54,956 nucleotides of DNA from Pedosphaera sp. (GTDB lineage: Bacteria; Verrucomicrobiota; Verrucomicrobiia; Limisphaerales; SIBH01), in contig JANOQV010000014.1 in the NCBI GenBank assembly GCA_031414955.1, positions 1 through 54,956 on the forward strand. Reading direction: 5' to 3'. The position numbers are program-made. Shown piece after piece: positions 48,001 through 54,000 of this stretch (position 1 is its first letter; every line of letters begins with the position of its first letter).

Positions 48001-51000
48001 ACTACTGGGTGATGGGCGACAATCGAATCAATTCGATGCTCGGTTCCGTCCCGCGGGAAAATATTTTGGGCAAGGCGCTGTTTTAGCCTGTCCGCAGTTA
48101 TCCTCGTTGAAATCCCGCTGCCCGCTGGCCACAGTTCAGCGTGCGTGCTCTCTCCCCTCCCAGCTTGAGGATCGCGGCCTGGCTGCTCGCCGCCGTCCTG
48201 CCGGCCTGCGCCGCGCAGAAGCAGTCCCTGACGCCCAGTGATCAACCCGACGTGGTGGCGCTCACGGCCGAAGCGCGCAAATCCGTGGTCGTGGTCACGC
48301 AACGCGGACGCGACGGTCGGCAGGACGGCGTGGGAGCGGGTTTCGTGGTGGCGCGCGAGGGATTGATCGCCACTTGCCTGCATGTCATTGGCGAAGGGCG
48401 AGCGATCAGCGTCGAGTTGAGCGATGGACGGCGCTTTGAAGCCACCGAGGTGCTGGCCTCGGATCGCAAGCTCGACCTGGCCGTCGTGCGCATCGCGGCC
48501 TCGAACCTGCCCGCGCTCAAACTTGGCGACTCGGGAGCATTGCCCCAGGGCGCGCCCGTCATCGCCCTCGGCAATCCGGCGGGACTGGAACACAGCGTGG
48601 TGCAGGGCGTGGTCTCGGCCAAACGCGACTTCGACGGCGTGGAGTTAATTCAACTGGCCATCCCCATCGAGTCCGGCAACAGCGGCGGCCCGTTGCTCGA
48701 CACTCGGGGCCACGTCCAGGGCTTGTTGAGCATGAAATCCGCCGTGACGGCCAACCTCGGCTTCGCCGTGCCTGTGAATGCGCTCAAGGCGCTCCTCGAC
48801 CGTCCCAACCCGGTGCCGATGGAGCGTTGGCTCACGCTGGGGGCCTTGAATCCCAACGAATGGACGCCCCTCATGGGCGCGCGCTGGAGCCGCAAGGCCG
48901 GTCGCATCCTGGTCGAAGGACTGGGCGCAGGGTTTGGCGGGCGCTCCCTCTGTCTCTCGCGTCAGGCCGTGCCGGCGCTGGCTTACGAGGTTTCTGTGAT
49001 GGTGAAACTGGAGGACGAAGCCGGCGCGGCCGGGCTGGTCTTCGCTTCGGATGGCGGCGACCGGCATTACGGCTTTTATCCCACCGCCGGCCAGATGCGC
49101 CTGACACGCTTTGACGGGCCGGATGTTTTCTCGTGGACGATCCTCCAGGAGTTCAAGACCCCGCACTACCAAGCCGACGATTGGAACACGATCAGCGTGC
49201 GGGTGGAGACGAACCGCATCGTTGGGTTCGTGAACGGCCGGCAGGTCATGGAATCCAGCGACGACGCGTGGCGCGAGGGCCGGGTGGGGCTGGCGAAATT
49301 TCGCGACACCCAAGCGCAGTTCAAAGAGTTCCGCCTCGGCCCCAAGGTCATCGGCCCGTCCATCACCTCCGGGCGCGAGGATGAGCGGAGCCGGTTGCTC
49401 GACCAAGCGCGTAAGCTGGAGCAGCAAGCGCAAGAGTTGCGGCGCGCAGCCTCTACATCCCACGCGCGCACCACGGAGCAGGCGCTCGTGGCAGCGCTGC
49501 ACGGGCCTGAGGAGCAGATTGATCTAAGCCACGCCGCCTTGCTGGTCGCGAAGCTGGATCAGCCGGAATTGGAACTGGAATCCTACCGCGCCGAACTGGA
49601 CAGCCTTGGCTCAGAGTTGAAAACAAAGCTTGCCGGGCCAACCAGCGACACGGCCAAGGTGGCGACCTTGACTCGATTCCTCTTCACCGATCACGGCTTT
49701 CACGGCAGCCGCACGGATTATTACAACCGGGCCAACAGCTACCTCAGCGACGTACTTGACGACCGCGAAGGCTTACCCATCACCCTGGCCGTGCTGTACC
49801 TCGATCTCGCGCGCCAGATCGGGCTGACCAACGTCGCCGGGATCCCCGTGCCGACGCACTTCATGATTTCGTTCCGCCCCGCGCAGGGGGCCGAACAAAT
49901 CATCGACGTGTTCAACGGCGGCAAGGTTTTGACCCGCAGCGAAGCGGTCGAGCAAGTGGCCGAGAACGCCGAGCGCATCAGCCCGTCCGACTTCACGCCG
50001 GCCAGCAAGCGGGAGATTATCACGCGCCTGCTGCACAACTTGAGCGGTCTCGCCCAGCGCACCGGCAGCGCCGGAGATTTGCTCCGCTACCTGAACGCCC
50101 TCGTGGCCTTGAATCCCGACTCGGTGGCGGATCGCCTCCTGCGGGCGCGCACCTTCATGCAACAGGGCAACAACCCGGCGGCCAAAGCGGACTTGCGCTG
50201 GCTGCTGGATCACGCCTCGACCGAGCTCGACCTGGAGCGCCTCGGCGAATGGTATCGCTCGTTATGAACCACCCACCGGTGCATCTCTTCGACCTCGCGA
50301 CGTGGAGACAGCAGAGCCGCGCCTGTTGGCCGTGAAAAACTCAGGACGGATCCTGAGCAAACCGGCCTGGCCCTGCGGGTAATGGGGAAATCCGGCCTTC
50401 GACCGGGCCGGAAGTAGATTGTTCGCGCCGGGAGAATTCAGGCGGAACGAGCCTGGCTCGGTCGGAATCTCCCGGCCGCAAAGCCTCACGCGAGAATGGG
50501 AACGGGCGAACGTCCGCCGACCGCAGCCTTCAAGTTCACTTCTTCTTCAACTCATCCAGGCGCTGGCGGACAAGCTCGCGTTCCTGGGCGTCGGCGGAGC
50601 CGGCATAACGCAGGTACTGTTCGTAGCGGCTCCGCGCCTCCTTCCAGTTTTTCTGCTGATAGGCAATGTCTCCCAGCCCGTAATAGACTTGGAAGCTCGT
50701 GGTAGTGAGCTTGAGCATGGCGACGTAATCCTTTTGGGCCGCCTCGAGTTTCTGACTGCGCAGATTGGCAATGGCCCGGTTGAGCAGCGCGGCGCTGTGA
50801 TCCTTTTGCAGCCGCAGCACGGTGGTGAAGGACTGGATGGCCTGCTCATAGTCGTTGATGAAGATGCAGAGATTGCCGTGGTTGAACCAAGCGGCGGCAT
50901 TTTTGGGCTGGAGGCGCAACTGACGATCCACCACCCGGAGGGCATTGGTCATGATCCCGGCCGCATCGGCCGTATTGGTGTGGCGCAACCGCTCGGCTTG

Positions 51001-54000
51001 GCCGACGTAAAGACGCCAGAGATTGTCGTAGGCCGCATCCACGGCGGGGAACCGACTGAGGGATTGAGTCAGGACTTGCTCGGCTTGCTGGAAATCTCCT
51101 TTCGCGAAATGAGCCAAAGATTCAACGCGAGCCACCTCCACCTGGACGGCGGGCGCGTTGGTTTGCAACTGCGGGCGGCTCCGGACGGCCTGCAGGAGGG
51201 CCAGAGCACGGTCTGGTTGCAGGGACAGAACCTCCAAGTTGGCCAGGGCCGCCTGGAAATAAACCTCGTCCGGCGAGTAGTAGAGCGAACGCCGCAGTAA
51301 CTGGCCGGCTTGGCGAAAGAGATTGCCGTTGGCGAACATGTTCGCCACCTCCAAGGCAAAGGAGGCTTCATCGATCGGTCCACAGACGCCCAGAATGTAC
51401 GTCAGCCCGGCGCGGTAGTGGCCGAGCTTTTCTTCGGTCTCCTTGCTTAATTTCACCAGACGAGTCCGGTCCTTGCGCCAGGAGGAGTTCATCTCACGGT
51501 TAATCAGCGCCGCCACATTCTCAGGGTTCAAGGCGATGGCTTGTTCAAAAACCGGCGCGGCCTCCTCGAAACGTCCGGCGCGTTGCAAATCGAATCCCCA
51601 ATGGTTCAAGGCCCGGGAATAGTAGCTGCCGACGAAGGACGGATCGCTGTCCTGTTGCTTCCGGGAATCACTGGGCAGCCGGGCCAGGTCCGACTTCAAT
51701 TCCTGAAACGGACCGGTCGCAAGCGCATTCCAGAACGCCGCCTGCTGAACCATCAACTCCCCGGTCACCACGGGCGGATCGGTCATGTCCGGCGCATAGG
51801 GTTTGAGCAGATAGACCAGCTTGGAAGGCTCGGCGTAAAAAGTCTCGAAATAGTACCCAAAACTCGGGTGGAGATAGACCAGTTCATGCGTGCGGCCCAA
51901 TTCCGCCACGAACTGAACCAAGGACAGTTGAGTCGGGTGCGTAGCCCCCGGCTTCAAGCGCAACTTGGGCAGGCGATCTCCATAACGCTGGCGGAGGAAC
52001 CGCTGGTAGGCGGGATCCGGCAACGCCCCCGTATCGATCAGGATGTGTTTGCTCGCGGCGGACGCTCCAAGCTGGGCCCGAACCGCGTGCAGGCGCAACG
52101 CGTCGTCGCTCATCAGGACGGAGGGCTTTTCCGGCAGCGATTTCATCAGCGCCTCGCTGTAATTGTGGAAGGCGCGGGAAGTCAGGGCCCGGATGTGTCC
52201 ATGATTTTGCTGATACAGCCGCCCGACGGCATAGATCGCCCCCCCGCACACCAGCACCGTCAGCGCGTGCTTGAAGACCGACGGCACCATCTCCTGACGG
52301 GAAGAGCGCCGGGCCTTGCCCCCGGCCAGCAAGAGCAGGAAGCCGCTGAAGTACCCCGCCGCCAACGCCCCAAGAAAATAGCAGGGAAGAAAGACGAACA
52401 GCACGGGGATGCTTTCGCGCGCTTGCGCCGCGACTTCCCGGGGGCTGATCGGCGGATCAAAGGCCACGTAAATACAAAAGGCCAGCAGGCCCGCGTGCAA
52501 GATGATGGCCGCCCCATTGGCAAAGGCGCTGCCCATGGGCGACTGATCTCCGAAGCTGCTCGACCATCGGATGGCAAGGATGAGCAGCGGCACCAAGGCG
52601 TAGATGGCGGGCAGCAAGCCGACGCGGCGGAAACCAATGACCATGTTTTTCTGAGCAACCAGGTTGGTCTTCAAGGCCGTCCAGAAGGAAACGGAGTTGA
52701 TGTCGGACTGGCTTTGCACGAGAGGCAGCAGCAGGTAAAGGGAAAGGCCGGCCAGGCCGAGCAGGAACATCTTCACGAGGAAATCAAAGCGGAAAAACTT
52801 CCACCCCTTCATCCAGACCAAGGCCACGAGCAGGGCCGGAAAAAATGCCACCAGCGCGTAATTATTCGTGAGGCCCAGGCCGTAAACCAAGGCCAGCTTG
52901 TACAGCCATGAATTCTGCCCCTCGACCCGGAATTCCAGGAGACAGCGCACGCAATAAGCGAAGAGCAACAAATCCAGCGCCTCGCCCGTGCCCACGATGG
53001 CGTTTTCCCAGAAGGTGCGTTGCAGGCCGCAAATGAGAACCGCAATTACGACCGGCACCCAGGCCAGTCGGAGGTTCAGGAAGGAGGTTTCGTCCGCGCT
53101 CCGATCCCGCTGCATTTGAGTCCGGTCATGCGGGAGAATCGCCACGCAGCGCGCCAGCAAACCCAGGCTTAACGCGGCGCAGAGCGCGGCGATGAAATTC
53201 AACCCCAGCAACTGAATTCCGGAAGGCAGCAAGCCCACGACCTCCGTCACCAGATAGTTCAAAGGCGCCGTGTAAACCGGTCGCCAGTCAACTCCCATGG
53301 CCCGGGCCAGGGGCCAGGCGCTGGACACCGTGATGGTCCGGGTGAGCGTGAAAAGATAAACGAGCAGCATGGCCGCGACGGCCAGCCACGGCAGATAGCA
53401 ACGGGCAAAGTTGCGCTTGGGCATTGTTTCCATTGTGCTTGGGTGAGCGGAAGTTGAAGGCATGGTGATGGGGCTTGGCAAGCGATTAGGCGGCGTCCAG
53501 CGACGCCGCTTGGCCCAACCCGCCGGGCGGCGGAATGGCCAGGCGGACATCCGCCACACATTCAACGTGTTGGGTCTGCGGAAACATATCCAAGGGGCGG
53601 ACGCTGCACAGTTCAAAGACACCCTCCGCGCATAAAAGGTTCAAATCTCTCGCCAGCGTGGCCGGATGACACGACACATAAATCACTTGCCGGGGCCGGA
53701 CAGCCCGCAGTTGCTCGATCGCACTCTTGGGCACGCCCGCCCGCGGCGGATCAAGAATCACGGTCGTGTCCTGCGCCGGAAATCGTTCCAGCAGCGACGG
53801 GAGCAACTGTTCCGCGTCGCCCAGCACGAAGTCCCCGTTGGGGCGGCGATGCCGCAGCGCGTTGTTCTTCGCCGCCTTGATGGCCGGCTTGTCCAATTCC
53901 ACGCCCACGAACTGCTCCACCGCATCGCCCAGGGAGATGCCGAAGAACCCAACCCCGCAGTAAACATCCACCAAATACTTCGAACCGCTCGACACCAGCG

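Follow-up and report, generated by a model that had tools for sequence, protein, structure and literature searches.

The window analysed here, a stretch of 54,956 nucleotides from the genome of Pedosphaera sp. (G000), encodes at 50536..53424 on the reverse strand a TMEM260-like GT-C membrane protein of 962 residues, which comprises a membrane part (residues about 8-415), a Rossmann-like palm and a long periplasmic TPR arm. The family assignment, proposed in an earlier note on this DNA, is upheld by a match to Pfam PF11028 (E 7.8e-9, over the cut-off), beginning at model position 20, and by the TPRs. The TPR arm (residues about 604-946; 50587..51615, reverse strand; Pfam TPR) itself holds three T-N-x-nonpolar sites (T755, T816 and T826). 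A fold search with the structural model (pLDDT 80.5) placed GT-C folds first (Z 13-17.5), with Pmt at the top (Z 17.5, rmsd 5.0, 343 residues aligned); TMEM260 itself was absent among the matches listed in either fold search, and the ESM Atlas returned unnamed or TMEM260-like clusters only. Upstream lies a TrmA/RumA-like RNA methyltransferase gene (53486..54634, reverse strand; Pfam PF05958), a common neighbour, which 23 of 29 orthologous loci have in this place and orientation. In 17 of the 29, the window-type gene is followed by a gene assigned to a glycosyltransferase family that we take to be GT4; a homologue of that fragment was not found in G000. The window also encodes two predicted substrates of the modification discussed below: a giant LTD/CotH/Ig surface protein recognized by domain matches (28743..38552, reverse strand), with 51 Thr-Asn (TN) dipeptides against 20.7 expected and 35 refined motifs against 11.0, and a small protein with a signal-peptide-like start (4770..5669, forward strand), with five TN against 2.3 and four refined motifs against 1.3.

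G000 carries two TMEM260-like GT-C proteins, the larger being encoded on another contig (G000:C241:30017-33745) and matching the window protein at 99.5% in a profile comparison. Alignment of this larger paralogue to the TMEM260 structure 9RQL identified equivalents of human D52, H67, R264 and Y267, all four unchanged across 87 of 87 orthologues. Its D677, which follows the first strand of the modelled palm, is equally invariant (87/87), and is a putative equivalent of the human catalytic base D441 by topology only. The window protein differs. Its first periplasmic loop (residues 27-55; 53260..53346, reverse strand) has neither the Asp nor the His of sugar recognition (D52 and H67 in the human enzyme), both of which the C241 paralogue keeps in the alignment; residues 27-40 contain no conserved acidic column, any Asp or Glu occurring there in 7 of 30 window-type orthologues, and L-x-x-Q-K replaces the human-type R-G-Q-Y in the R264/Y267 region. 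Because all four equivalents are missing, it is not a complete TMEM260-type catalyst. Asp440 (52105..52107, reverse strand), at the end of the first palm strand (435-439 in the model) and 33 residues past the invariant N407, is the putative equivalent of D441, matched by topological place; all 30 order orthologues have an acidic residue there (Asp in 27, Glu in 3), and the column is variable in other-class paralogues. A profile search of PDB sequences returned no match, and hence nothing to align directly with the palm of human TMEM260. The window protein is a donor-motif-less paralogue, a candidate acceptor-recruiting partner or else a rewired transferase. G000 also encodes a Ppm1-like protein (C254:6484-7224), 57% identical to one whose gene adjoins the enzyme gene in another genome (G170).

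The earlier note had claimed that TN is over-represented in Sec-exported proteins and at expectation in the cytoplasm, and independent gene calling (4449 genes) reproduced this. TN ranks first of 400 dipeptides among all G000 proteins (9540 sites, 1.88x, z 63) and also heads the list in 824 signal-peptide proteins (2718 sites, 2.12x, z 40; next z 17), in which the related dipeptides SN (1.03), TD (0.91), TQ (0.75) and NT (0.88) are flat. TH is likewise not raised in exported proteins, making the Asn requirement absolute, and the reversed spacing T-x-N, tried as a motif, stands at 1.00. Cytoplasmic-type proteins, taken as the two most E/K/R-rich quintiles of signal-less proteins, give 1.02 and 1.01. 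As previously claimed, the excess is confined to the reading frame (0.88-1.25 in the other frames of the 824 genes); every Thr and Asn codon contributes to it. It is even along the chains (deciles 1.9-2.5), and sites turn over, with 25% of 275 retained in orthologues.

The entire excess resides in a four-residue form. In 1071 exported G000 proteins, T-N-(not P)-[VILPFTWMAY] occurs 2671 times against 892.6 expected (2.99x), compared with 1.04x for T-N-x-[DEGKRN] and 1.06x for the refined motif in cytoplasmic proteins. The reported depletion of Pro after TN was recovered (0.033 vs 0.071; 7510 sites in exported and membrane proteins), and Pro at this position abolishes the whole excess. The following residue is decisive, Val (3.7) exceeding Thr (2.7) and Ser (2.0). 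Ser weakly replaces Thr at the first position (S-N-x-nonpolar 1.29 vs 0.65 in exported proteins). This +2 rule holds in both contig halves of G000, across 79 further loci of the order (1.83 vs 0.85) and in genomes of other classes that have the paralogue (1.82 vs 0.82); against the best reading, it is absent from a 24-genome order sample (1.76 vs 1.59).

The sequon is limited to extracytoplasmic segments, as general protein glycosylation systems require. In 37 Ser/Thr kinases, TN stands at 10/14.3 (0.70) inside versus 106/47.4 (2.24) outside, and 41 other one-helix proteins give 0.66 and 1.87; all six TN of the YidC-like protein fall within residues 29-273. Tat substrates are spared, with 0.80 in 64 twin-arginine proteins and 46/53.5 in a second set of 65. 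These results bear out the one-helix kinase, YidC and Tat observations of the earlier note; for its sensor kinases, a filter on the present gene calls retrieved two proteins only. By protein class, the values are 2.82 for lipoproteins, 2.26 for prepilins and 0.87 for Tat-like proteins.

The motif extends beyond the order, contrary to the restriction previously proposed: three genomes from another class are TN-rich (G269, 101/60.1; G127, 109/73.0; G194, 67/48.4, counted over all called proteins). Within the order, a window-type orthologue was found in 117 of 121 genomes. Strong TN enrichment is seen only where both TMEM260-like proteins occur, and lineages without the window-type gene are neutral or weak, corresponding to about two independent losses (about two clades on a FastTree enzyme tree). 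The refined motif stands at 52/67.7 (0.77) in four genomes with no TMEM260-like match over weak level, and at 55/51.5 (1.07) in four genomes of the order from which the window-type gene alone is missing; exported orthologues in the latter give TN 28/37.0 (0.76) versus 1.49 for their G000 partners. Candidate transferases had been noted as present in TN-neutral order genomes, which holds for the complete paralogue but not for the window-type gene, missing from the four neutral order genomes found. Small order genomes, meant as a control for genome reduction, were examined over only 6-35 kb each. Several results count against this association. Other-class genomes without the window-type gene still reach 92/70.1 (1.31), including G034 (1.60) and G125 (1.63), the complete enzyme itself holds ten TN in G034 and nine in G098, and the order clade without the window-type gene is also without the other GT-C genes tested. 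A genome-wide index set beforehand weakly supports the link, with values with versus without the window-type gene of 0.322 (n=20) versus 0.353 (n=4; p 0.048) in the order and 0.328 (37) versus 0.343 (14; p 0.12) in other classes; 8 of the 20 order genomes having the gene score like those without it. As a genome classifier, the DNA ratio SACCAAY/SAAYACC had medians of 1.19 in the order, 0.89 in the class and 0.66 in the rest (270 genomes). At the protein level, ten order loci of low ratio remain rich in TN (91/55.2, counting the enzyme gene); the ratio is confounded by codon use and was therefore not used to call single genomes.

G000 encodes 15 or more additional candidates of the GT-C, YfhO-, TMTC- or Wzy_C-like kinds. 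Profiles were drawn up for five, those of four being restricted to five genomes. The GT-C gene L261, which at first seemed to co-vary with the motif, was rejected on a wider profile, being present in four neutral genomes (G224, G131, G143 and G183) and not found in TN-rich G127 and G194, nor in G014 and G086. Each of L272, L267 and L271 is lacking in one TN-rich genome and occurs in neutral G224, and none of the five genomes profiled yielded L269.

Four known systems provide points of comparison. General O-glycosylation in Bacteroidota uses the sequon D-(S/T)-hydrophobic, has measured glycans and an undiscovered transferase, and is called in a review the only known sequence-defined bacterial O-glycosylation (PMC12871550). 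In both cases the non-cytoplasmic proteins of a single lineage are enriched in a short linear sequon with a hydrophobic residue downstream, but phylum and motif differ (DT 0.81 and DS 0.85 in exported proteins here), and the present sequon is predicted from sequence statistics. Human TMEM260 is a PF11028 O-mannosyltransferase with GT-C, palm and TPR parts (PDB 9RQL/9RQM/9RQN), and acts on extended peptides recruited through its TPR (10.64898/2026.03.17.711096; PMC10214176). The layout is shared, and the C241 paralogue keeps the D52, H67, R264 and Y267 equivalents and a palm Asp. The human enzyme, as there described, is single and domain-specific with a long, unrelated Pro/Gly sequon, whereas here the motif has four residues and spans the exported proteome, and there is a second paralogue devoid of the donor motif. 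The oligosaccharyltransferases STT3/PglB/AglB (GT66) share the fixed Asn, the exclusion of Pro after it and a decisive +2 residue; here, however, +2 is not confined to Ser/Thr and Thr is obligatory at -1. Topology-dependent sequon selection is known in eukaryotes (PMC5562741). A literature search (titles and abstract starts, outside subscription journals) found no paper on a T-N motif or a Verrucomicrobiota glycoproteome. Actinobacterial Pmt (GT39) is a Sec-linked GT-C enzyme that O-mannosylates proteins from a polyprenyl-phosphate-mannose donor, to our knowledge with no fixed sequon. Pmt is the top fold match of the window protein, but the proteins here belong to PF11028, not PF02366.

The best reading makes T-N-(not P)-nonpolar a sequon for modification coupled to export, and is strengthened by the strict +2 rule, the dependence on export and topology, the exclusion of Tat substrates and the site turnover. 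Glycosylation of some kind is probable; for co-translocational O-glycosylation of Thr by the TMEM260-like pair, the balance is even. The analysis establishes the motif, its dependence on export and topology, and the active-site residues and distribution of the two proteins; the attachment of a sugar, the role of Thr as acceptor, the donor, the enzyme and any partnership between the two are inferred. The motif would be the acceptor sequon of a general periplasmic O-glycosylation system, in which a chain emerging unfolded from Sec presents four extended residues to a TMEM260-like GT-C enzyme. The Thr hydroxyl, and weakly also Ser, would receive a sugar, probably a polyprenyl-phosphate-borne hexose, for example mannose. 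The complete C241 paralogue would provide donor binding and catalysis, and the window protein, with donor motif lost but palm and a longer TPR arm kept, would be the partner making the reaction proteome-wide. Of the earlier proposal of a glycosylation sequon, with TMEM260-like and other GT-C enzymes as candidate transferases, the export-coupled sequon stands and the TMEM260 lead is strengthened and split between two proteins, of which the C241 paralogue is the complete TMEM260-type one. A bolder version, tentative and rather doubtful, is that a two-part machine of catalytic subunit and donor-less TPR partner writes this proteome-wide code, about 3,800 excess sites per genome, as chains are exported by Sec. 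Bacterial TMEM260 proteins would then have their first assigned function, and the family would be a pointer to the missing Bacteroidota transferase.

If true, this would be a second sequence-defined bacterial O-glycosylation, with a new four-residue sequon and thousands of surface and periplasmic sites, in Limisphaerales and another Verrucomicrobiota class, a large and mostly uncultured lineage. Bacterial TMEM260 homologues would gain a function, and the undiscovered Bacteroidota transferase a candidate. The short tag could serve glyco-engineering, and metaproteomic searches would miss many peptides of such bacteria. The sequon proposal comes with named candidate enzymes open to point-mutant tests.

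Other explanations account for parts of these data. An enzyme-free bias in the structure, composition or DNA of repeat-rich surface proteins would fit the frequent large Ig and propeller families of G000, but is highly improbable: 450 exported proteins without paralogue or internal repeat keep the excess (TN 2.11x, refined motif 3.01x), which also persists against 60-residue local shuffles, across all helix-former quintiles (1.97-2.27) and in frame only. This reading is largely refuted by paired orthologues, the same proteins being neutral in other lineages (0.70-0.79 vs 1.5-1.8). The motif might instead involve no covalent change, tagging nascent exported chains for a membrane-anchored TPR receptor or chaperone, with the window protein as a pseudo-enzyme; its lost donor motif, long TPR arm and better tracking of strong enrichment than the complete enzyme agree with this. 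Chaperone binding is mostly hydrophobic, however, a strict Thr-Asn pair would be unusual, and a weak signal remains where the complete enzyme occurs alone (1.31), leaving this improbable. To a non-sugar modification during export (phosphoglycerol, phosphoethanolamine, acyl or similar) we give equally little credence. The statistics establish an export-coupled linear motif only, which other lipid-donor chemistries would presumably match, but the gene that tracks the motif best is a sugar-transferase family member, often followed by the GT4-assigned gene.

Two further readings retain glycosylation. Thr could be O-glycosylated at the same sequon by some other GT-C or ligase-type enzyme instead of the TMEM260-like pair. 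In favour of this are the many further candidates in G000, the few genomes in which four of the five were profiled, and the loss of several in the neutral order clade too; as none of the five tracks the motif, the chance of this is slight. N-glycosylation of Asn through an altered N-X-S/T is unlikely. Here the hydroxyl would come from Thr at -1, +2 would enter a non-polar pocket, and the enzyme would be a non-STT3 GT-C protein, perhaps the window protein using another lipid donor. The absolute need for Asn and the exclusion of Pro after it count against Thr O-glycosylation and, with the decisive N+2, resemble N-X-S/T geometry; the acidic palm residue (30/30) also favours this reading. Against it, N-X-S/T is not enriched in the 824 exported proteins (N-x-S 0.96, N-x-T 1.17), Val exceeds Thr and Ser at +2, the sole characterised TMEM260 chemistry is O-linked, and no STT3/PglB/AglB gene was found in G000 (95.9% complete; PF02516 0/1, PF21436 0/5, controls positive). 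The weak exchange of Ser for Thr is compatible with both O- and N-glycosylation.

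The excess of Thr-Asn in the exported proteins of this Pedosphaera genome is real. Gene calling with a dicodon model yielded 4449 genes in the 6.55-Mb genome; with expectations from permutation within each protein, Thr-Asn ranked first of 400 dipeptides (9540 sites, 1.88-fold, z 63, all proteins) and reached 2.12-fold (2718 sites) in 824 signal-peptide proteins, in agreement with the earlier note, which had named it the top dipeptide and raised in exported proteins. By the same permutation Ser-Asn (1.03), Thr-Asp (0.91), Thr-Gln (0.75) and Asn-Thr (0.88) were, as that note held, not raised, and N-x-T and N-x-S stood at 1.17 and 0.96. 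Protein classes were assigned by simple hydropathy rules, and the raw 'cytoplasmic' class gave 1.6 because starts were missed in gene calling; its two most charged quintiles (1.02 and 1.01) bear out the claim that cytoplasmic proteins lie at expectation. The bias is again confined to the reading frame, with every Thr and Asn codon contributing, and its reported dependence on topology recurs, at 2.24 outside versus 0.70 inside in 37 Ser/Thr kinases and 1.87 versus 0.66 in 41 other one-helix proteins (the sensor-kinase filter yielded two proteins). The ratio was 2.11 in the 450 exported proteins that have neither a paralogue nor an internal repeat.

The motif exceeds two residues. Across 1071 exported proteins, the excess depends on which residue occupies the second position after Asn, with V (3.7), I (3.2), L (3.1), P (3.1), F (2.9), T (2.7) and W (2.7) favoured and no excess for D (1.0), E (1.0), K (0.8), R (0.9), N (1.1) or G (1.2). 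Pooled, T-N-(not P)-[VILPFTWMAY] occurred 2671 times against 892.6 expected (2.99-fold) and T-N-(not P)-[DEGKRN] 557 against 537.1 (1.04-fold), while T-N-P, already described as disfavoured, remained at the background of A/V/G/L-N-P (1.3). Thr is preferentially preceded by Gly or Pro. The motif ratio was 1.06 in 808 cytoplasmic proteins, and for Ser-Asn the nonpolar class gave 1.29 versus 0.65 for DEGKRN. Since these residue classes were derived from the genome itself, they were checked on other data: the rule recurred in both contig halves, in 79 named loci of Limisphaerales (291/158.9 = 1.83 versus 0.85) and in 13 genomes of other verrucomicrobial classes (1.82 versus 0.82), and was absent from a 24-genome sample of the order (1.76 versus 1.59). 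Genome-wide the excess amounts to approximately 3800 sites (6488 versus 2647). Lipoproteins (n = 92) gave 2.82, prepilins (n = 26) 2.26 and twin-arginine proteins (n = 65) 0.87, the last as expected from the reported sparing of Tat substrates. Sites are evenly distributed along chains, occur in helix-rich segments too, and turn over singly (25% of 275 retained in orthologues, similar to other dipeptides), a pattern that would be expected if selection acted on how densely sites occur in unfolded chains exported by Sec.

PF11028, the TMEM260-like family, is present in 120 of 121 genomes of the order, in 54 of 151 of the phylum sample and, among 14 control genomes, in Bacteroides thetaiotaomicron only. 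The Pedosphaera genome encodes two members. The complete enzyme (1242 aa; contig C241, 30017-33745) is alignable to human TMEM260 (9RQL), and all 87 orthologues keep equivalents of D52, H67, R264 and Y267, the donor-binding residues of the human structure (10.64898/2026.03.17.711096). An Asp after the first palm strand of the model is likewise invariant (87/87), and we infer that it maps to the human base D441. The second member (50536..53424, minus strand, 962 aa) has a predicted GT-C fold, supported by fold search, and is homologous to the complete enzyme; all four donor residues are missing in 30 orthologues, position 440 is acidic in 30/30 and the TPR arm is long. The same source states that the TPR of human TMEM260 alone recruits extended acceptor peptides (10.64898/2026.03.17.711096). 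A strongly conserved loop, L-P-H-D-R-T-x-E-Q-R (53089-53133), without counterpart in the complete enzyme, is probably cytoplasmic and possibly a docking site. The donor-less paralogue also occurs in tandem, as three copies (G056:C214:7960-15735) or two (G149:C31:149779-154824 and G179:C3:3798-8845).

Orthologues of this paralogue are present in 117 of 121 order genomes; none was found in G007, G079, G034 and G098 (91-95% complete), whose 100-kb samples are near neutral for Thr-Asn (99/102.3 = 0.97), each below the first percentile of Pedosphaera resamples (1.31 for the class used). In paired alignments, exported orthologues of the four gave 28/37.0 = 0.76 and their Pedosphaera partners 54/36.2 = 1.49, with 1.48 and 1.74 in order genomes carrying the gene. 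The objection that candidate transferases also occur in neutral order genomes thus holds for the complete enzyme, retained by all four, and not for the donor-less paralogue. The latter is present in 37 genomes of other classes, where sampled genomes gave motif ratios of 1.82 with it and 1.31 without; genomes lacking the family gave 0.77. Three other-class genomes show Thr-Asn bias (G269 1.68, G127 1.49, G194 1.38; all proteins, 100-120 kb samples), so the bias is not restricted to the order, contrary to what had been proposed. Four genomes with no or only weak TMEM260-like match were neutral (0.73-0.97). A DNA ratio across 270 genomes showed the same trend, but is confounded by codon use. Five other GT-C or ligase genes, four of them profiled in five genomes each, did not track the motif. 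The fifth, which encodes a GT-C protein and has neighbours resembling Wzc and outer-membrane barrel genes (C184, 18848-20635), was found in 109/121 order and 55/151 phylum genomes.

On the enzyme tree the four order genomes cluster together (support 85), as do five genomes of other classes that lack the paralogue (support 100), so its absence represents about two events. The other GT-C genes tested are missing from the order clade as well. A whole-genome index, defined before its test, moved weakly in the predicted direction (p 0.048 within the order, 0.12 outside it). It fell below 0.295 in none of 18 genomes with the family but without the paralogue, and in Pedosphaera (0.282) and 12 others with it; among the 20 order genomes that carry the gene, 8 had an index resembling that of genomes without. 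Some motif excess occurs without the paralogue (G034 1.60, G143 1.75, G123 1.48, G125 1.63; intervals wide), and the complete enzymes of G034 and G098 are themselves Thr-Asn-rich. In the simplest fit, a basal signal would come from the complete enzyme, and a strong one would also require the partner, though the partner would not suffice.

We favour O-linkage to Thr, because the motif is tracked by one family only, an O-transferase family whose presumed hydroxyl-activating base is in place, because Ser substitutes weakly, and because Tat substrates show no excess, which is what an enzyme working on extended chains would produce. The enzyme would act on extended chains exported by Sec, with the Thr hydroxyl as acceptor. 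N-linkage, to which the Asn-centred geometry of the motif would point, is unlikely; STT3/PglB was not found in this genome, where controls matched, and the system is not of the STT3 type. We consider it improbable that another enzyme makes the modification, and there is similarly little chance that the adduct at the motif is not a sugar. It is also quite doubtful that the motif is a non-covalent tag.

The proposed system resembles Bacteroidota O-glycosylation, which likewise has a motif in non-cytoplasmic proteins and an undiscovered transferase (PMC12871550); its motif test was negative here. That glycan begins with mannose (PMC12871550). As its transferase is undiscovered and B. thetaiotaomicron carries PF11028, the candidates for the Bacteroidota O-transferase include a TMEM260-like protein. 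The sequon read by human TMEM260 is both long and domain-specific (10.64898/2026.09.21.753134), against four residues here, and the anammox motif is G-T/S (10.1101/2020.12.03.409086), against T-N-x-nonpolar. A term search of a review of bacterial O-glycosylation found no passage on Verrucomicrobia (PMC12645811), and titles and abstract starts, with subscription journals outside coverage, yielded no paper on T-N-(not P)-nonpolar. New in this analysis are the four-residue rule, the occurrence beyond the order and the anatomy of the two paralogues.

In G170, a single strand carries within 11 kb (L034:1245-12115) four genes that we take to encode a Ppm1-like GT2, a UbiA-like prenyltransferase, the complete TMEM260-like enzyme and, about three to four genes after it, the donor-less paralogue. 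The presumed Ppm1-like donor synthase gene stands two genes ahead of that for the complete enzyme, and Pedosphaera has a homologue of it with 57% identity. What is presumably a small ECF-sigma-factor-like gene (L015:8409-8966 and orthologous loci) adjoins the complete enzyme gene in 56 of 111 loci and lies immediately 5' of it in 52. A gene we assume to be GT4-like (L208:1-360 and orthologous loci) comes after the window-type gene at 17 of 29 loci; no homologue of the L208 fragment was found in Pedosphaera. Elsewhere in the window, a 3.2-kaa surface protein (28743-38552, minus strand) carries seven LTD domains, a CotH kinase domain, and Ig and Calx-beta domains, and one of two small minus-strand genes (388-1422) encodes a 197-aa product that presumably resembles Panacea/DUF4065 antitoxins.
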